Assembly: GCA_039934815.1 (NCBI GenBank)
Contig: JBDTLL010000001.1
Span: 1,010 to 65,009 of the forward strand
Direction: 5' to 3'
Source: Daejeonella sp.
Lineage (GTDB): Bacteria; Bacteroidota; Bacteroidia; Sphingobacteriales; Sphingobacteriaceae
DNA length: 64,000 nucleotides
Part shown: in pieces, positions 43,302-52,102 of the stretch
How positions within the stretch are numbered: position 1 is the first letter of the stretch
How the letters are laid out: the number at the start of each line of letters is the position of its first letter
Made by a program: the position numbers and the translations under genes
Notes under the pieces: generated by a model
What the model was told of the DNA's origin: nothing
The model's input: the letters and a program-made list of their open reading frames with translations, nothing else
Databases searched by the model: none

Positions 43302-44372
43302 TCAAAATAAATCCAGTTGTTTTCCCTTTGCGGGATTAAAGTGTTCAAAATTAAATGCCCTGAGAGTTTTGCCATCCATATATTTTTTAACAGATAGTTT
43401 GTAAAGCTGATGGATACTTTCAGCAAGCTTTCCATCGCCTGTTTTTCTTAATTGCCATCTGCTGTCATTTAATTTTCCCTGATGACAATCCGCAATCATA
43501 TTCAAAACTTTTTCGGCCCTGTCGGGAAAAGCTTTATGAATCCAATCGGTAAATATTTCCGCTATTGAGCCATTTAGTCGCACTAAAGTAAATGAGGCGC
43601 CTTGAGCGCCAGCTTCAGCAGCGGTTTTTATAACATGCGGGATTTCATCACTATTTAAACCCGGAATAATGGGAGATAACATCAGTTTAACGGGAATATT
43701 AGCTTCACTAAGTGTCTTAATTAATTTAATTCTTCCCATGCCGGTAACAGTTCTGGGTTCAAGCTTTAAACGTAAGTCTTCATTTAAAGAATTTAAAGTA
43801 ACCGAGATATGAACCAGGTCCAAAGCAGCTAATTCCTTTAAAATATCCAGATCCCGCAGCATTAAATTGTTTTTGCTGATCAAACTTACCGGATGTTTAT
43901 ATTTCAAAAATACTTTGAGCAAAGAACGGGTGATCTTTAGTTTACGCTCTGCCGGCTGGTAGCAATCGGTATTACCCGAAAGCATAATTGCTGCGGGTTT
44001 ATAACCTTTTATATTAAAATATTTCTCCAATAATTGTGGAGCATCCTGCTTAACAATTATTTTTCTTTCAAAATCTAAACCGGCACTAAACCCATAATAC
44101 TCATGCGAATTACGTGCGTAACAATAAATACAGCCATGTTCACATCCCTGGTAAGGGTTTATAGAATGCATAAAAGGCAGATCTGGACTGTTAGAAATAC
44201 TGACTATTTTTTTGGGATGTTCGGGGTAAAATTGGGTTGTTGAATTTTCCAGCATTTCCTCATCTATACCTTCGGGATGGTCCAGCACATAACTGTTTTT
44301 CAAAAATTTATTATGTGTGTTTATCTGCGCCCCACGACCTTTAAAAAAGTCATTATTTTCTGCATGCGACAT
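43302..44372 (-). CDS. PA0069/Rv2578c family radical SAM protein
   Basis: GRGA, NPYQGCEHGCIYCYAR, NTDCYQP; ATG at 44372 preferred. Confidence 0.92.
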   Translation of the reverse strand: MSHAENNDFFKGRGAQINTHNKFLKNSYVLDHPEGIDEEMLENSTTQFYPEHPKKIVSISNSPDLPFMHSINPYQGCEHGCIYCYARNSHEYYGFSAGLDFERKIIVKQDAPQLLEKYFNIKGYKPAAIMLSGNTDCYQPAERKLKITRSLLKVFLKYKHPVSLISKNNLMLRDLDILKELAALDLVHISVTLNSLNEDLRLKLEPRTVTGMGRIKLIKTLSEANIPVKLMLSPIIPGLNSDEIPHVIKTAAEAGAQGASFTLVRLNGSIAEIFTDWIHKAFPDRAEKVLNMIADCHQGKLNDSRWQLRKTGDGKLAESIHQLYKLSVKKYMDGKTLRAFNFEHFNPAKGKQLDLF

Positions 44373-44585
44373 ATGCAAAAATGCTAAAAAAATTAGTAAA
44401 ATAAGAAATAACTTTCATCGTAACTTTTTGTGGGTGTCAATCAGTTTTATTTTACGACGCTGTAAATACCAGATGTTTCTTTTTGTAAAGACCTTAATAA
44501 CAACGATATAATTTAAAATAATTTGATATTGCTATTGTCTTTGCAATGGTTAATAAGTAAATTCATTTATTCAAACCATATCACC

Positions 44586-44957
44586 ATGATGACTAAGCAC
44601 GAATTAGAAAATAATGTCAGCGAGGTTTTAACGGAGGCTGATAAATCGCAGGATAAAGTCCAAAAATTTAAATTTATCTGGCAAGGATCTGTAAAACCCG
44701 CCCTGGGTATTATAAAACTAATTACAGGCAGAAGAACGGATATGCACATTGATGAATTAATAGAAGCTGCTGACAATTTAAGTGAAGGAAATCCATCCGG
44801 AGAAAGCAAATTTTGCGCTGTATGGAATAATTTACATGCCAGATCGCTTTTAAAAACAATACAGATTCTTACCGGACCAAAGGTAGATAAAGCCTTAAAT
44901 AAATTTATAGATATTGCGGATAGTATATGTGGCCCGGAGGAAGTAGACGAACCTTGA
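44586..44957 (+). CDS. Hypothetical small helical protein with an internal duplication
   Basis: 123 aa from ATG 44586; two ~42-aa repeats KF...W...L..I...TG...D...I..AD. Confidence 0.75.
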   Translation: MMTKHELENNVSEVLTEADKSQDKVQKFKFIWQGSVKPALGIIKLITGRRTDMHIDELIEAADNLSEGNPSGESKFCAVWNNLHARSLLKTIQILTGPKVDKALNKFIDIADSICGPEEVDEP

Positions 44958-45034
44958 TCAAAGCATAATCTTCCATCGGCGGATATTTAACTCTGCACGC
45001 TTTTAATTTCTTTACAGAATTTAAAAAATGCAAC

Positions 45035-45439
45035 ATGAGCATTTATAAAACTGGTTCTGGATCATTACAGATTTTGCTAAGTACCGATATTAGTACTATT
45101 GGTTTAGCAGGCTCAAGAGCAACTTTATTTAAACCAGATTCCGGAAATGGAAGTCTTCCGGTGGCACATTCTGTAGATGCAACAGGTGATATTCCGGTAA
45201 CACCCATTGGAAAAGCTTTATCCTTAAAAGGATTTAGGTTATCCATTATGTCAAAAATAGATCTTAGTATTTTAGGTGACAGAGAAACCCGGGAGAAAGA
45301 ATTTTACAAACTATCATCGAAATATTTTTTGGATGGAGGAATAGATAATTATAAGGAATTTGAAGCTGATGATAATGAAATAACGCACGATGATGAATAT
45401 ATAACAGTACTGATCTACAAACTAATAGAATTTATTTAG
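45035..45439 (+). CDS. Hypothetical protein (134 aa, no signal peptide)
   Basis: ATG after an A-rich tract, co-oriented, 3 bp from the next gene. Confidence 0.7.
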   Translation: MSIYKTGSGSLQILLSTDISTIGLAGSRATLFKPDSGNGSLPVAHSVDATGDIPVTPIGKALSLKGFRLSIMSKIDLSILGDRETREKEFYKLSSKYFLDGGIDNYKEFEADDNEITHDDEYITVLIYKLIEFI

Positions 45440-45442
45440 CCT

Positions 45443-46606
45443 ATGAAACGAATCCAACTAATTGGTTTATTATTTCTGGGTTTTGAGCTATTCAGTTTAC
45501 AGGTTTTGGCACAATCAGCAGATGGTGGATTAAAGTTGAAAGAACTGGCGGTTCCAAATTCCCCGGCTTTTATTTTATTAGATATTGCTCCAACTTTAAT
45601 CGAAGCTCCATTAACTCCCAAAGAATTCGCCTTTGCTGCCATTCAATCTTTTTCTGATGATGCAGGTTTACCACAAAATTATTCAATGGAGTTCACTCCT
45701 TATTGGTGGCTTAATGCCAAGAAAAGAAATGTTTATGAATTTGCCGGAATTACCAAAACATCGGCAGGAGTTTTTAAAGAGAACGTTTTTTCGGGACTAA
45801 AATTCAGCAATTTTTCTGTCGCATTTGTGAATAAAGACCTTATTCCCGATACCTCAGCTTTCAATCAGAAAATATTCTCTATCGGAGTAAACACAACACT
45901 TTTAAAAATCCACAACGCAAATTACGCGGCAAAATTAAATTCAGAAATTGACAACTGGCATAAAGAAATTCAAAAGGAACTTGCAATTATGCAAGATAAA
46001 TTGAACCAGGAAAGTGATCCTGCAAAGAGAAGGGTTTTGCAGCAGGAATTAAATGACACCGTTTTTCCGGTTAGCTCAAAAATTGCCGAAAACATTAATG
46101 ATATTATAAAAGAACATCCGCTGTTTATCTTAAATTTTTCTGCAGCATATGCTGTTTACGGTATTGATAACCGGTATTTAAGAAATGGGAGGTCGGGTGC
46201 GTGGGCTACACTCGCTTCCTTTTTACCTATGAAAAGTTCTGAAAATTCCGCGAACAGTAATTATCTGAATCTGATAGTTTCTTCACGATATATGCATGAT
46301 AATTATTCTATAGATGAGAATAATATGCTTGCTAAAACTAGCTCTTTTGACCTGGGAGGAAAAATAGCATTTGAATTTAACCGCGTTCTTTTTGGTTTTG
46401 AATCTCTGCAAAGAACTTATACAAGCGGTACAAATTTTCATTACAGCAGAAATGCCGGGACCATTTCCTATCGCTTGAACAATAATTTATTTATTAACGG
46501 AACTTTTGGGAAGGATTTCGGACTGGAAAATAAAATAATTACCCTTTTTGGGTTTAACTGGGGCTTTGGAGAAGAAAAGATCAATCTTCCGGATCCCGGT
46601 TTATAA
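45443..46606 (+). CDS. Exported protein, probable outer-membrane beta-barrel
   Basis: Sec signal ending VLA-Q; amphipathic strands in the C-terminal half; ends FGFNWGFG; central coiled coil. Confidence 0.65.
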   Translation: MKRIQLIGLLFLGFELFSLQVLAQSADGGLKLKELAVPNSPAFILLDIAPTLIEAPLTPKEFAFAAIQSFSDDAGLPQNYSMEFTPYWWLNAKKRNVYEFAGITKTSAGVFKENVFSGLKFSNFSVAFVNKDLIPDTSAFNQKIFSIGVNTTLLKIHNANYAAKLNSEIDNWHKEIQKELAIMQDKLNQESDPAKRRVLQQELNDTVFPVSSKIAENINDIIKEHPLFILNFSAAYAVYGIDNRYLRNGRSGAWATLASFLPMKSSENSANSNYLNLIVSSRYMHDNYSIDENNMLAKTSSFDLGGKIAFEFNRVLFGFESLQRTYTSGTNFHYSRNAGTISYRLNNNLFINGTFGKDFGLENKIITLFGFNWGFGEEKINLPDPGL

Positions 46607-46616
46607 TTCTAAGACA

Positions 46617-47804
46617 ATGAAAAAGGAAAATGATACTCCTTTGTATTGGATGTTAATTTTTACCTGTTTAAGTTTCTTAACGGGCAATTTCGCTGCCGCG
46701 GAAGAATTGCAGCCGGCTGTTTCCAAAATCGATTTAACTACTTCTGATCAGCCACAAATAATTGATTTAAAAGTTAAAAAATTGGATACGTCTGCGGTGA
46801 ACTCTACCCGAAAAAACAACCTGGTTTATGTTAACAATCTGTTACTTGTCAGAATTACCAACCCGCGGCAGTTTCTATTGTTAAGACCATCAGATAACAG
46901 TAAGTTAATTTTATATGCCGACGGACTCCCGCTTGAAGGGATTTATTCCCGCCGTTTTGATAAGTTTTCCCGACAGGAAGTAAATGAGGGGAAAATTTAT
47001 ATACCGGACGAGATGTGGATCCCGTTTGTGATGAGCAGAGATTCTGAATCACAAATGGCATGGAAAGATCTTTACCGCCAAACTACGCACTGGTATAATA
47101 ATAACATCACTTTTCAAGCTTCTATTGGCTGGGAAGGTATGTATCCCATCCGGCAACGAGATGCCAAAGTAGATACAACCATTACCGTAGTTTTTTATAA
47201 TCCGCTTATTTTCTGGATCTGGCTGATATTCTTTGTTTTATTTGTGGTGTTTTTTATTTACCTCTCTGCCACTACTGATATTATTTGCGAATACTGCAAG
47301 GAAGGTAAAGGAGCCTATAGTTTATCGCAAACTCAGCTGGTTTTCTGGACCGTAATTGTGGTTGGTGCATTTATTTATTCTTTAATTTTAACAGATCTAA
47401 CAGACTCCTTAAATACCTCTGTTCTGATGCTTTTAGGAATAAGTATCAGCACTACAGGTGTGGCCAGCTTTATAGATTATTATAAAAAGACCAAGCCGGA
47501 ATGGGTGGTTCCCAAAAAACACAGAAGCTTTTTGTTTGATATCCTTTCTGATGGTGACAACATCAGCGTACAACGTACGCAAACGGCTATGTGGAATATT
47601 GTATTTGGGATTTACTTCGTGATTTACACCATCAATAATAAAACAATGCCCTATTTTTCAGAAACCCTGCTGGTTTTATCCGGAGTAAGTTCTTCCTTTT
47701 ATCTGGGTTCTAAACTGGTTGAAAATGTAACTCCTTTACAGGAAAGACAACCTCCAAAAATTTCAAAACCAAAGCTTGAGCCCAGCTCAGAAGCTGTAGG
47801 ATAA
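46617..47804 (+). CDS. Signal peptide + soluble domain + five-TM membrane protein with a duplicated hairpin
   Basis: ATG 46617 preferred; signal ends AAA-EE; one TM, then two SxxxTQxxxW...LxLxGxS repeats. Confidence 0.75.
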   Translation: MKKENDTPLYWMLIFTCLSFLTGNFAAAEELQPAVSKIDLTTSDQPQIIDLKVKKLDTSAVNSTRKNNLVYVNNLLLVRITNPRQFLLLRPSDNSKLILYADGLPLEGIYSRRFDKFSRQEVNEGKIYIPDEMWIPFVMSRDSESQMAWKDLYRQTTHWYNNNITFQASIGWEGMYPIRQRDAKVDTTITVVFYNPLIFWIWLIFFVLFVVFFIYLSATTDIICEYCKEGKGAYSLSQTQLVFWTVIVVGAFIYSLILTDLTDSLNTSVLMLLGISISTTGVASFIDYYKKTKPEWVVPKKHRSFLFDILSDGDNISVQRTQTAMWNIVFGIYFVIYTINNKTMPYFSETLLVLSGVSSSFYLGSKLVENVTPLQERQPPKISKPKLEPSSEAVG

Positions 47805-47836
47805 AATCAAAACATGAACCAATAACAAGAAATGAT

Positions 47837-48658
47837 ATGAAAATTTCAAATCATCTATTAGTTGACGATAACGGAAAGCAGTTTCCTTACAAAGCAACTC
47901 CTAATCACGGCGGACGATATATTCCAAAGTATTTAGTGATGCATTATACAGCAGCTACCACAGAAAGTTCTGCAGTTAGCTGGCTAACAAGTCCTATTGC
48001 GCAAGCATCGGCACATTTAGTTATCGGTAGGCAGGGAAAGGTAACTCAACTTGCTCCATTTAATGTTATAACCTGGCATGCCGGCAAGAGTACCTGGGCG
48101 GGTTTGGTTGGAATGAATAAATACGCCATAGGTATTGAGCTGGTAAATGCTGGCCGTTTGTCTAAAACTGGCGAGAAATGTATCTGCCCGGTAGATAAAC
48201 AATTTATTGATGAAAATGATGTTCTGCTGGCCCGACATAAAAATGAAAATCAGGATTCTTTATGGCAGGAATACAGCAGTGCACAATTGGAAATAGCTCA
48301 GGAGATTGCAGCGCTTCTGGTTAAAAATTACAAGCTTCTGGATATTGTCGGACATGATGATATTTCGCCAATCAGAAAGTCAGATCCGGGACCCGCATTT
48401 CCGATGAAAAGCTTTCGGGCAAGGGCTATGGGCAGAAAGGATGAAAATTTGGATAGTTACGTAACATCGGCGCTATTAAATATCAGGTCAGGACCGGGAA
48501 CTTTGTTTGAACCAATTACAAAACCCCTGCCTGCCGGAACCCGGGTAACAGCGTTAAAAACTGAAGGTAACTGGACTTTTGTAGAAGTAGAAGATGTTGT
48601 AAACGGATTGATGGATTTAGAAGGCTGGGTTTTTTCTAAGTATTTGGCTAAAGCTTAA
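47837..48658 (+). CDS. N-acetylmuramoyl-L-alanine amidase (Amidase_2) with C-terminal SH3b
   Basis: MHYTA, SAHLVI, WHAG, IGIELVN, GHDDI..RKSDPG; LNIRSGPG..GNW..GWVFSKYL; no signal peptide. Confidence 0.92.
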   Translation: MKISNHLLVDDNGKQFPYKATPNHGGRYIPKYLVMHYTAATTESSAVSWLTSPIAQASAHLVIGRQGKVTQLAPFNVITWHAGKSTWAGLVGMNKYAIGIELVNAGRLSKTGEKCICPVDKQFIDENDVLLARHKNENQDSLWQEYSSAQLEIAQEIAALLVKNYKLLDIVGHDDISPIRKSDPGPAFPMKSFRARAMGRKDENLDSYVTSALLNIRSGPGTLFEPITKPLPAGTRVTALKTEGNWTFVEVEDVVNGLMDLEGWVFSKYLAKA

Positions 48659-48662
48659 CGCT

Positions 48663-49970
48663 ATGAAATTTAAAATTTTATCAATGGATGGAGGCGGCTC
48701 CTGGGCAATAATTCAAGCCAGGGTGTTAATGGATATTTACGGCGATATCGGCGGTCACGAACTGTTGAGAAAATTTGATATGGTCATCGCAAATTCTGGA
48801 GGAAGTTTGGTGCTTGCATGCCTTTGTAACGATATGAAGCTGAGTCAGGTAATTGATGTTTTTAAATTACAGTCAAATCGCGAAAGCGTATTTTCAGAAT
48901 TAACATTTTGGGAAAAAATGACCGTAACCAATCTGATCAGTTTTTTGAGAAAAAAAATCCAGATTGGACCGAAGTACAGTACAAAAAGAAAGTTAAGTGG
49001 CTTAATTGATGTGCTCAGGCAACATGACCATTTATTTGCTGAGAAAGTTATTCAAACCCCAATTGTTGATACTTCTCTGCATAATTTACCCGAAATAATT
49101 AAAAAGCCCGAACTACAGATTTTAATTGTTGGATTTGATTATTTCCGCGAAAGAGTTAGTTTTTTTCGATCTAACACCAAAAGCAATACAGACCGGTTTA
49201 GCGATGGCAAATTCTATCAGATATCACTTGCTCACGCTATACATGCTTCCAGCAATGCGCCTATTAATTATTTTGATGCTCCGGCAACCGTAAATGTTAG
49301 CCTGCTGAACGGCGAAGACCGAAGAAAAACCTGGTTTTGGGATGGTGCCGTTTCCGGATTTAACAACCCGGTTTTAGCTGCGGTAATAGAAGCTATAACT
49401 AACAATCATACAGAACCAAAAGAATATTGCATACTTTCTCTGGGAACCGGAACTGGTGGTGAAGCTATAATTAATGATTATGAAAACTCGTCAGATCCTC
49501 TGATTGATAGCATCTATAAAGCCAATATAAATAACAAATTAGCCAAGACAGATAACACGCAGAATTTTTTGAGGGATGTACGAAAAATGTCTACCAGCAT
49601 TTTAGGAGATCCACCCGATTCTGCCTCATTTATCGCGTATTCTATTATTGAACCCAGCTTGCAAAACGGGGCCAATTTGGTTCGGATAAATCCATGCATC
49701 AAACCGGAGCTGAATAAAGACAATTATTTTGTAATACCCGAAGTATATCGAAATGATAGTAACGGCGAACAAAAATTTACACAATTGATGAATATGGATA
49801 TGGATGCAGTGCAACAGCAGCAGGTGGAGCTAATCATTGATCTTTGCGATAAGTTTATTACCCAAACCGAACCATGTCTCCCAAATCAATTTATCAGAGG
49901 AAATAAAATTAGCGGAATTGGTTATGGAACTTATCGCGAAGCAAAGGAAAAATGGATGCAAATAATTTGA
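48663..49970 (+). CDS. Patatin-like phospholipase (non-canonical motifs)
   Basis: ILSMDGGG, ANSGG nucleophile elbow, ASSNAP, WDGAV..NNP, LSLGTG. Confidence 0.85.
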   Translation: MKFKILSMDGGGSWAIIQARVLMDIYGDIGGHELLRKFDMVIANSGGSLVLACLCNDMKLSQVIDVFKLQSNRESVFSELTFWEKMTVTNLISFLRKKIQIGPKYSTKRKLSGLIDVLRQHDHLFAEKVIQTPIVDTSLHNLPEIIKKPELQILIVGFDYFRERVSFFRSNTKSNTDRFSDGKFYQISLAHAIHASSNAPINYFDAPATVNVSLLNGEDRRKTWFWDGAVSGFNNPVLAAVIEAITNNHTEPKEYCILSLGTGTGGEAIINDYENSSDPLIDSIYKANINNKLAKTDNTQNFLRDVRKMSTSILGDPPDSASFIAYSIIEPSLQNGANLVRINPCIKPELNKDNYFVIPEVYRNDSNGEQKFTQLMNMDMDAVQQQQVELIIDLCDKFITQTEPCLPNQFIRGNKISGIGYGTYREAKEKWMQII

Positions 49971-49983
49971 CAAGGTAATTTTT

Positions 49984-51018
49984 ATGAAACGGATTATAAC
50001 CTGTAGCGACGGCACCTGGAATAAACCCAATGGTTTAGATCATGGCAAACCTGTGCGTACCAACGTTCAGAAAATATTTGAAAGCATTTGCAACAGAGAT
50101 GATAATGATACTCATCAAATTAAATTTTACGATGAGGGAATTGGTTCAGAAGGTAATTTTTACAGTAAAATATTCGACGGTGCTACCGGAAAAGGTATCG
50201 ATGATAATATTATTGACATTTATAAATTCATCATCTGGAATTATGAGCCCGGAGATGAAATTTACCTGTTTGGCTTTAGCCGGGGTGCATATACAGCCAG
50301 AAGTGTAGCCGGCTTAATCCGCAACAGCGGGATTTTAAAAAACAATGACCTTGCTAAAATTCAGGAAGCATATAAAATCTATCGCGATAGAGGTAATAAA
50401 AAATTATATCCTAACGGAGATGAAGCAGTTGCTTTCCGCGAAAAGTATTCACATCCAGATCTGAGTATCAAATTTATTGGAGTTTGGGACACTGTTGGCT
50501 CATTAGGTATTCCTTCCCGCTGGTTTCAATGGTATAACAACCGGAAATACGAGTTTCACGACACCAAATTGAGCAGCAGTGTGAACTACGCTTACCAGGC
50601 GCTGGCAATTGACGAAAGGCGTGGAAATTTTAAACCAACCTTGTGGCAAACCGGAGAAAAAGTGCAAAAGGAGTTGGTAAGTCAGGTGATGGAACAGGTT
50701 TGGTTTACAGGCGTACATTCCAATATTGGGGGTGGTTACCCCGACGAAGGTTTGAGTGATATTGCGTTAAACTGGATGATAGAAAAAGCGAAAGGTGCCG
50801 GACTTGGATTTGATGAGAATTACATTAAAAACAATATAAGTCAGAAATCCGATGGCGTTTTATACAATTCCAAATCTTTCCCGTTTTCTCTGATGCCAGA
50901 TTATATTAGGCCGGTAAAACAAACTGAATTCGCGAATGAAGATATCTCCCCGCTGGTTATGGAAAGGATTAAAAAGTCGGGTGCTTATAAGCCGGAGAAT
51001 CTTAAAGAATGGTGTTAA
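49984..51018 (+). CDS. DUF2235 / Tle1-like alpha/beta-hydrolase phospholipase
   Basis: CSDGTWN, TNV, GFSRGAYTAR, GVWDTV, AIDERR, WFTGVHSNIGGG. Confidence 0.92.
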   Translation: MKRIITCSDGTWNKPNGLDHGKPVRTNVQKIFESICNRDDNDTHQIKFYDEGIGSEGNFYSKIFDGATGKGIDDNIIDIYKFIIWNYEPGDEIYLFGFSRGAYTARSVAGLIRNSGILKNNDLAKIQEAYKIYRDRGNKKLYPNGDEAVAFREKYSHPDLSIKFIGVWDTVGSLGIPSRWFQWYNNRKYEFHDTKLSSSVNYAYQALAIDERRGNFKPTLWQTGEKVQKELVSQVMEQVWFTGVHSNIGGGYPDEGLSDIALNWMIEKAKGAGLGFDENYIKNNISQKSDGVLYNSKSFPFSLMPDYIRPVKQTEFANEDISPLVMERIKKSGAYKPENLKEWC

Positions 51019-51102: not shown

Positions 51103-51462
51103 ATGGCACATTCAACAGAATTTGAAAATTTAGTAAACGAAGCAAAAAAGAATATTTCTGAACTTACCGTTGCTCAAACTTTAGAGCGGGTCCAGGCCGG
51201 AGCGGTAGTTATTGACGTACGTGAAGATAATGAATGGGACAAGGGACACGTTAAAGACGCCATTCATTTGGGCCGTGGAATAATTGAAAGGGATATTATT
51301 GAGGAGATTCCTGATAAGGAATCTGAATTGATTTTATATTGCGGCGGCGGTTTCAGATCTGCGCTATCTGCAGAAAATTTGCAAAAAATGGGTTATAAAA
51401 ATGTTTATTCAATGGCCGGAGGCTGGCGTGCGTGGCAGGATCAAAAAGCGCCGGTGGAATAA
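51103..51462 (+). CDS. Rhodanese-like domain protein
   Basis: IDVRE, YCGGGFRS, SMAGG. Confidence 0.92.
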   Translation: MAHSTEFENLVNEAKKNISELTVAQTLERVQAGAVVIDVREDNEWDKGHVKDAIHLGRGIIERDIIEEIPDKESELILYCGGGFRSALSAENLQKMGYKNVYSMAGGWRAWQDQKAPVE

Positions 51463-51466
51463 ATAA

Positions 51467-52102
51467 TTACCCTTCTATCAGAAAAACATACAACTCTTTC
51501 GGCCCGTGAGCTCCTAAAACCAGAGTTTTTTCAATATCCGCCGTGCGACTTGGTCCGGTTATATTAGTTATCATCGATGGCAAATCCGGGCCATATTTAT
51601 CTTTCAATAATTTGAATCCGTCTTTCAAATCCAAAACCAACTGAGAAGTATAAGCGAAAACAATATGTATGTGCGGATAAATACTTAATCTACGTCCGGC
51701 TTCATTGCCATTAGAAACCATTACGCTGCCGTTTCTGGCCACTAAAGCTTCGCAAAGTGTTATTCCAACCTCAGCTTCTAAAAAATCCGTATCGGTACTG
51801 TAAAACGGGTATTCGTAGGTTTCCAAAACTTTTTGGAGTTTAGGCTCCCAGCAATAGATTTTGCGAAATTTTTTCACTTCAGCTAACTGAAGCAAATTTT
51901 CAATGAACTGAATTTCATCCTCGCAATAAACAAACTGTCCGGAAACGGCTGTTAATTGTTCAGCAAACAGCACTTCCAAATATTCGGTATTTTCGGCGTA
52001 CAATGCAGTTTCTTCCAGATTTGGATACGGATTGTCTCTCTTTTCTAAAAGAGCTTTACGTATCTTCTTCAGCATTTTTTCTTTGGAAGTGGTTTCTTTC
52101 AT
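51467..52102 (-). CDS. LUD domain (LutC/YkgG) protein
   Basis: ITGPSRTADIEKTLVLGAHGP. Confidence 0.92.
   Translation of the reverse strand: MKETTSKEKMLKKIRKALLEKRDNPYPNLEETALYAENTEYLEVLFAEQLTAVSGQFVYCEDEIQFIENLLQLAEVKKFRKIYCWEPKLQKVLETYEYPFYSTDTDFLEAEVGITLCEALVARNGSVMVSNGNEAGRRLSIYPHIHIVFAYTSQLVLDLKDGFKLLKDKYGPDLPSMITNITGPSRTADIEKTLVLGAHGPKELYVFLIEG

Follow-up and report, generated by a model that had tools for sequence, protein, structure and literature searches.

Type 10 secretion systems pair a holin with a peptidoglycan (PG) hydrolase that lacks a signal peptide, and in Serratia they include spanins. Systems of this kind and domesticated lysis cassettes comprise ChiWXYZ of Serratia, TtsA and ChiH/ChiP of Salmonella, and a cassette of Yersinia entomophaga (both points from PMC13284979). 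Type 10 secretion and lysis cassettes are further covered in PMC9527704. Phages without spanins exist (PMC6139136), and section 15 of that paper offers the speculation that "an OMP could act as an o-spanin" (OMP, outer-membrane protein). The locus described here comprises seven open reading frames (ORFs), named A to G, at positions 44586-51018 of a 64,000-nucleotide stretch of Daejeonella sp. DNA (contig JBDTLL010000001.1, positions 1,010 to 65,009; referred to as the window). All seven are on the + strand.

Tentatively, the locus is read as one of several arrangements of a modular cassette that is chromosomal and not of phage kind, and that may well form a type 10-like analogue of the holin/endolysin/spanin set from cellular parts, lysing or permeabilizing the producer and releasing leaderless lipases. 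The cassette occurs mostly in Bacteroidota and is built from mix-and-match parts. Gene context shows its slots. These are a multi-pass membrane protein (D, or a family termed c9), a leaderless PG hydrolase, an outer-membrane part that is exported and has a small leaderless partner, and optional leaderless lipases. The hydrolase slot is filled by Amidase_2, Amidase_3, GH108, CHAP, M15, or DUF5675, the last presumably a wall peptidase. The outer-membrane slot is filled by B-C, by a lipoprotein with a helical protein, or by a second pair made of a small protein and a putative barrel.

ORF A (44586..44957) encodes a leaderless, acidic protein of 123 aa (net charge −5) with ten homologues. Its helices look strongly amphipathic, and it has an internal repeat of two similar segments, around FIWQGSVKPAL...ITGR and AVWNNLHARSL...LTGP. 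ORF B (45035..45439) encodes a leaderless, beta-rich protein of 134 aa from an unnamed family and is the predicted partner of C. ORF C (45443..46606) has a signal peptide and is predicted to form a 12-stranded outer-membrane barrel with a plug-like segment at the N-terminus and, at residues 157-227, a helical hairpin. ORF D (46617..47804) has a signal peptide, an exported beta-sandwich with weak likeness to IPT/TIG domains, and a multi-pass membrane domain (D-TM; TM, transmembrane), and is a putative holin analogue. No family scored over cut-off for A to D in Pfam, NCBIfam, PADLOC, or PHROG.

ORF E (47837..48658) encodes a leaderless PG amidase with Amidase_2 (7e-26) and SH3_3 (1.6e-7) domains in Pfam, and it also matches endolysins and amidases in PHROG. 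ORF F (48663..49970) encodes a leaderless patatin-like phospholipase (Pfam Patatin, 1.6e-15). ORF G (49984..51018) is a leaderless, stand-alone DUF2235/Tle1-like catalytic domain (Pfam T6SS_Tle1-like_cat/DUF2235, 5.4e-93) with nothing significant in a sequence search of the PDB. E contains the motifs HYT, IGIE, GHD, and SDPG; F contains DGGG, ANSGG, and DGA; G contains GFSRG, DTV, and HSNIGG. These look catalytic by comparison with the known motifs of the families. The intergenic gaps from A to G are 77, 3, 10, 32, 4, and 13 bp. By a hydrophobicity heuristic, C and D have a hydrophobic N-terminus and A, B, E, F, and G have none. The original prediction, made from the sequence alone, was thus correct as to the seven co-oriented ORFs, their coordinates and gaps, the domains of E to G, and the lack of leaders in the three hydrolases.

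Like type 10 systems, the locus has a membrane protein gene adjoining the gene of a signal-less PG hydrolase (E), together with cargo hydrolases. It differs in the lack of holin or spanin homology (none in PHROG for A to D, c9, the lipoprotein, or its helical partner), in the signal peptide and exported domain of D, and in the use of a beta-barrel, paired with a leaderless protein, as the outer-membrane part. No relative of C or D-TM was confirmed on viral contigs, in pattern-based scans of limited sensitivity for these two. Plasmids gave no match for C or a D-TM. The locus resembles the Rz/Rz1 spanins in that an outer-membrane protein with a helical extension, predicted to be periplasmic, and a second partner are encoded with a PG hydrolase. 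It differs from them in that a barrel (C) stands in place of a lipoprotein and a soluble protein without a leader (B) in place of an inner-membrane i-spanin. There is no sequence match either; among A to G, neither a PHROG spanin match nor a lipoprotein signal was found. The likely working of the cassette resembles the known lysis or type 10 kind, with components that belong to no named family. A literature search found no paper describing the cassette or the B-C pair, with the limits that supplements could hold such clusters and that most subscription papers lay outside the search.

The chromosomal site of the locus was compared within the genus. The radical SAM gene (43302..44378, − strand) is its conserved left border, and a gene at 51467..52102 (− strand), presumably a LUD-domain gene, is its conserved right border. 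Of the 46 same-genus genomes searched, 24 have the radical SAM gene. In 15 of these, the site is empty, defined here as none or one unrelated gene ahead of the right border gene. Three hold a kinase/regulator cassette, and six hold a cassette led by A, which is the first gene in all six. The complete A-B-C-D-E-F-G set is present in the window genome (G000) and in G272, whose proteins are 84-95% identical to those of the window. G189 has A-c9-lipoprotein-helical protein-E-F-G-rhodanese, in which E, F, and G are 76-79% identical to the window proteins, and G023 has A-c9-lipoprotein-helical protein-E. G003 and G361 have only A-B-C.

In G189 and G023, a trio of c9, lipoprotein, and leaderless helical protein therefore replaces B-C-D between the same A and E, with the lipoprotein filling the slot of a spanin. 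As gene context shows, B-C-D and the unrelated trio supply the same classes of part: a multi-pass membrane protein, an exported outer-membrane part, and a small leaderless partner. The slot-fillers are treated as non-orthologous because profile comparisons detect no homology between A and the helical partner, D-TM and c9, B and the 96-aa small protein of the second pair, or C and the second putative barrel (probability 0.1-3%, from thin alignments). In G000, c9 was not found, in a genome 84.5% complete and by a search that had no positive control.

A conserved, fixed system of seven genes was considered and rejected, as the full set recurs solely in the close relative G272. Among 34 D loci of a genome collection, only L003, which has the same proteins as G272 and is counted once with it, has all seven genes; the other 33 do not, and no other C locus does. 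D was not found in any of the 36 same-genus genomes of a first draw. The self-contained seven-gene module of the original prediction is not borne out. What does recur is its functional logic: the slots of membrane protein, leaderless PG hydrolase, outer-membrane part, and leaderless lipases are filled elsewhere by parts that are not orthologous.

The rhodanese-domain gene (51103..51462, + strand) also follows E-F-G in G189 (76%). All 15 empty sites lack it, as does G272. Because it is missing from the empty sites, it is assigned to the insert, probably as an eighth gene, and not to the housekeeping border where it had first been placed; the radical SAM gene was correctly taken as a border.

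The model of D shows a signal peptide, a beta-sandwich, and five long helices (predicted local distance difference test score, pLDDT, 80.5). Hydropathy alone shows three clear TM segments, so the earlier description of D as an inner-membrane protein with five TM segments and an exported domain holds for the model only. In a fold search, the best Z values were 6.8 and 6.5; these lie within the range of common arrangements, and the IPT/TIG label is therefore a lead only. The named homologues of D are from Bacteroidota, mostly Sphingobacteriaceae, and D-TM is present in 32 of 400 family genomes.

Genes of PG hydrolases recur beside D. The family draw gave 30 D-TM loci, or 28 without the window and G272, and 45 of their 80 neighbours were scanned, after repeats, own loci, and a number of short ORFs had been set aside. 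An adjacent PG hydrolase is present at nine of the 28 loci (one CHAP, two Amidase_2, and six related GH108, the last presumably of the TtsA family), and all nine hits are below 1e-11. The control consisted of 120 ORFs out of 405 at a distance of 4 kb or more from the anchors. At an E threshold of 1e-5, it contained no lytic PG hydrolase and one housekeeping S13 carboxypeptidase. In the genome collection, six of 33 D loci have an adjacent PG hydrolase (four related Amidase_2-SH3, one cyanobacterial Amidase_3, and one Amidase_2 followed by a patatin), and L029 has a weak seventh (E 0.003). Five D loci are common to the two sets. The hydrolases adjoining D relatives are leaderless and of unrelated folds. 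Split or frameshifted copies were seen of an amidase gene (L024:11923-12740) and of the radical SAM gene in G293.

The c9 proteins (L228:6605-7873 and relatives) form an unnamed membrane family of 320-550 aa with an SLGAPFWF-like motif at the end. They adjoin amidase, CHAP, or M15 genes at L063, L081, L265, and L266. No hydrolase lies within 1.5 kb of c9 at L259, L261-L263, and L267, and proteases are present at L260 and L264. D-TM is carried by 11 of 21 C-positive genomes versus 21 of 379 others. The same comparison within genera gives 4/7 versus 1/48 (g49) and 5/8 versus 10/47 (g50). D-TM or c9 is present in 14 of the 21 C-positive genomes versus 10 of 56 controls. The p values of this co-occurrence overstate it, because kin are not independent.

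The same classes of part are recombined elsewhere. Cassettes with D include D-CHAP-small protein-second putative barrel (G291), D-lipoprotein-helical-CHAP (G061), D-B-C (G345 and G399; loci L169 and L170), and D-amidase-patatin (L033 and G404, the latter with a divergent lipoprotein/helical pair in addition). Cassettes with c9 include c9-small protein-second putative barrel-F (G136) and c9-B-C-DUF5675-large membrane protein (1329 aa)-G (G111, with G148 alike). B-C-E-patatin is found at L106, and small ORF-C-like-M15-F in G120. A predicted lipoprotein of 142-165 aa and a leaderless helical protein of 107-114 aa recur together beside c9 or D-type genes and PG hydrolases (L228:7906-8747, L250:10009-10853, L232:5975-6771, L233:7536-8341, L234:5370-6184, and L266:2566-3319), where the pair occupies the slot of B-C; it matched no Pfam or PHROG family where scanned. 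The second pair joins a leaderless protein of 93-96 aa to a signal-bearing putative barrel of 382-392 aa (L229:6575-8020 and L231:6827-8285); homology between this pair and B-C was not detected. Some loci have, directly after B-C or a D-type gene, leaderless ORFs of very large size (2125 aa; 583-1077 aa), which are candidate cargo (L161:10799-17173, L165:4780-11154, and L234:8097-15999).

B-C is the fixed core of the modular cassette and belongs to no named family. A total of 97 non-redundant C loci were collected, some from related metagenomes and so not independent, and 85 of these have at least 400 nt upstream. A hidden Markov model places B directly upstream of C in 68 of the 85, and B and C overlap by 4 nt in 31 of the 68. 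Further checks raise the count to 74 of 85. The six added cases are L058, where C is frameshifted, L115, L132, and L135, found with an iterated profile, and the in-frame fusions L126 and L127 (G294 and G153). In the rest of the 85, eight have an unassigned ORF of 113-171 aa in the place of B, and three have none. A split or frameshifted C barrel was observed at L167:8753-10029.

The B family has 277 clusters at 50% identity, and the best 150 are 103-173 aa long. An N-terminal hydrophobicity threshold is passed by 2 of these 150 B proteins versus 68 of 78 C proteins. Pfam found no family common to more than one of 66 members of the B alignment. C has no Pfam match, its Atlas clusters share no common family, and neither B nor C has a significant sequence relative in the PDB. 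The spread is patchy: C is present in 21 of the 400 genomes of the family draw, and B in 5 of the 400 drawn from the phylum. The named homologues of C are from Bacteroidota. B-C also occurs on contigs with a guanine-plus-cytosine (GC) content of 63-66% (L107, L110, and L112), which, because of that content, probably lie outside Bacteroidota.

The site could instead be an insertion hot spot where independent blocks (A, B-C, D, and E-F-G) accreted and have no joint function. That the full set is found in only two genomes, that the site hosts unrelated kinase/regulator cassettes in 3 of 24 genomes, and that the blocks occur separately are all as expected from accretion. It does not account for leaderless PG hydrolases of unrelated folds beside D and c9 (9/28 versus 0/120 for D), for the same part classes recombining at unrelated loci, or for gaps of 3-32 bp from B to G. 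This explanation is judged unlikely; as a sole account, chance accretion is contradicted by the linkage of B and C, the hydrolases beside D, and the exchange of parts at one site.

C was proposed from the outset to be an outer-membrane barrel, and its model is a 12-stranded barrel (pLDDT 83.9, predicted template modelling score 0.79). The fold resembles KdgM/NanC, COG4313 (Pput2725), FapF, and the beta-domains of autotransporters (Z 16.0-16.8, root-mean-square deviation, rmsd, 2.4-3.5 over 170-205 residues). The best matches are KdgM (Z 16.8, rmsd 2.4, 170 residues aligned) and the COG4313 channel (Z 16.7, rmsd 3.1, 205 residues aligned). Identity to these barrels is 5-12%, and because the top matches are tied, the barrel family of C cannot be named. 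In the model and fold search, C shares the N-terminal plug-like segment with barrels of the COG4313/FapF type. Its hairpin of about 70 residues (strands 4-5) and its partner B have no counterpart among the matched barrels, as far as these were examined.

Modelling of the barrel with the small protein, which the original prediction had proposed, gave a B-C complex scoring 0.89 in three runs, and the best of three controls scored 0.00. The 0.89 mark is reached by 116 of 157 solved pairs and 2 of 215 mismatched pairs, a calibration that applies roughly here since our own alignments were used. Contact agreement between runs was at least 81% and the pLDDT of the partner at least 89. In the prediction, B contacts residues 88-100 and 169-222 of C and sits against its helical hairpin. 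Within the hairpin, interface residues are somewhat better conserved than the others (p 0.03). The last strand of C (365-375) aligns with the C-terminal strands of known barrels, and when the strands are counted backwards from it, residues 88-100 and 169-222 would fall on the periplasmic side. With the hairpin placed in the periplasm by strand parity and B lacking a signal, the pair presents a topological puzzle.

The holin/endolysin/spanin-like reading is put forward because it is the simplest account joining leaderless wall hydrolases encoded beside multi-pass membrane proteins, a leaderless partner with a predicted place on the periplasmic side of an outer-membrane protein, and leaderless lipases for which no type VI secretion system (T6SS), sheath, or cyclase was found. 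Sec would deliver C and D to the envelope, where they would wait, and A, B, E, F, and G would accumulate folded in the cytoplasm. Upon a trigger, D would open the inner membrane and E would cut the PG. B would reach the periplasm only after this breach, dock on C, and either unplug C or destabilize the outer membrane. F and G would then finish off the membranes of the producer and/or be released against neighbours. A bolder proposal, of a cellular system for programmed lysis and release, is that B is the signal of inner-membrane breach and opens the outer membrane by docking on C. This would be a spanin-independent, barrel-based final step, interchangeable with the lipoprotein-based one and usable alone as a sensor of inner-membrane damage in the many genomes with only B-C. 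It is possible, if rather doubtful.

Several observations weigh against a role in lysis. PG hydrolases make up only 6 of 113 scanned ORFs flanking B-C, and most B-C pairs lie among housekeeping genes without a lytic neighbour. No adjacent PG hydrolase is present at 27 of 33 D loci in the collection or 19 of 28 in the family draw. Because six of the nine family-draw hydrolases are related GH108 and four of the six in the collection are related amidases, the independent events number only a handful. Both D-TM and c9 are missing from seven of the 21 C-positive genomes. F homologues of at least 50% identity are present in 10 of 400 family genomes, with cassette neighbours in four and without in six. 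The term holin-like, applied to D in the original prediction, is an inference from the neighbourhood; neither D, its TM-only forms, nor c9 matches a holin family in Pfam or PHROG. To our knowledge, a signal peptide with an exported domain, as in D, is unlike known holins. The predicted interface of B shows no higher conservation than its other residues (p 0.36). Lastly, in G294 and G153 a B domain is followed in frame by an internal signal-like segment and a C barrel (L162:8600-9916 and L163:8888-10201), and such fusions fit a cytoplasmic B at least equally well.

These fusions, which would hold B in the cytoplasm, favour a second explanation, in which B-C stands by itself and is unrelated to lysis. 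B would be a cytoplasmic chaperone or assembly factor (or cargo) binding the hairpin of pre-C before Sec export, C an ordinary small channel, and D-E and F-G separate modules that share a promoter. The small, acidic (pI 4.8), leaderless B, its frequent 4-nt overlap with C, and the housekeeping neighbours of most pairs also fit a chaperone. The predicted interface does not, as it joins residues 88-100 and 169-222 of C, which would meet only in the folded barrel. Nor does a chaperone explain why a lipoprotein with its own leaderless partner replaces B-C in the same slot, or why D-TM or c9 is commoner in genomes that have C. On balance, this explanation is also fairly unlikely.

In the scans made, no T6SS, phage, or cyclic-oligonucleotide-based anti-phage signalling system (CBASS) parent was found, as the original prediction had stated. 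VgrG (PF04717) and sheath (PF04984) gave no match in G000 (84.5% complete), G272 (97%), G189 (99%), or G023 (99%), and the controls were positive. TssD, the Bacteroidota Hcp, also gave no match, in a search where the control genomes were equally silent. It is highly improbable that E, F, and G are orphan effectors of a T6SS or extracellular contractile injection system and that C and D (or the lipoprotein) confer immunity to them. The Tle1-like and patatin folds are indeed T6SS effector folds. In G308, a GH108 and D-type pair lies directly upstream of a phage-sheath-like gene (L200:1-2786), which suggests a release module of a contractile particle. Against orphan effectors stands the lack of VgrG and sheath matches in the four genomes. 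D also pairs with hydrolases of unrelated folds and has TM-only forms without a periplasmic domain, which misfits cognate immunity.

The catalytic domains of F and G resemble those of the CBASS CapV and DS-2 patatins and of T6SS Tle1. Unlike those proteins, F scores far below the curated cut-offs (58.5 bits with a cut-off of 200 for the CapV equivalog/lipase model, and 44.2 with a cut-off of 400 for DS-2), no cyclase or T6SS partner was found, and G is a stand-alone domain. The abortive defence envisaged in the original prediction would have infection activate the lipases and amidase and kill the cell. The weak matches of F to these models and to PADLOC phospholipase effectors, and the patchy distribution, are in keeping with it. 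PADLOC is silent for A to E and G, no cGAS/DncV-like nucleotidyltransferase is among the seven genes, and the SMODS nucleotidyltransferase gave no match in five genomes (control positive; G000 84.5% complete). The site also lies among housekeeping genes and has no evident sensor. An anti-phage role is accordingly very unlikely.

Should the lysis reading be right, Bacteroidota would gain a lysis or release route made from cellular and not phage parts, and candidate holin analogues would be named in two unnamed membrane families, D-type and c9. It would also allow a direct test of the speculation, in the cited section of PMC6139136, that an outer-membrane protein does the job of a spanin. Even if that reading fails, B-C is a widespread unnamed family with a confidently predicted complex and the puzzle that a protein lacking a signal is predicted at the periplasmic side of a barrel.

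The surroundings of the locus are housekeeping genes. GC content across the region is 0.34-0.41, with no anomaly. Scans for promoters (19 versus 24.6) and terminators (8 versus 6.3) were at chance level, and an Rfam scan of the window gave zero matches. The kinase/regulator cassettes at the same site (L243, L246, and L248) consist of a small leaderless ORF, a membrane protein of about 215 aa, and kinase-like and regulator-like genes, labelled by sequence appearance. Such cassettes also lie beside B-C or D at L162, L169, L170, and L177, and are possibly a system sensing a released protein. In G003, G361, and G023, the cassette is followed on the opposite strand by a cluster of a GMC oxidoreductase and a patatin (L147:10641-16909, L149, and L250).

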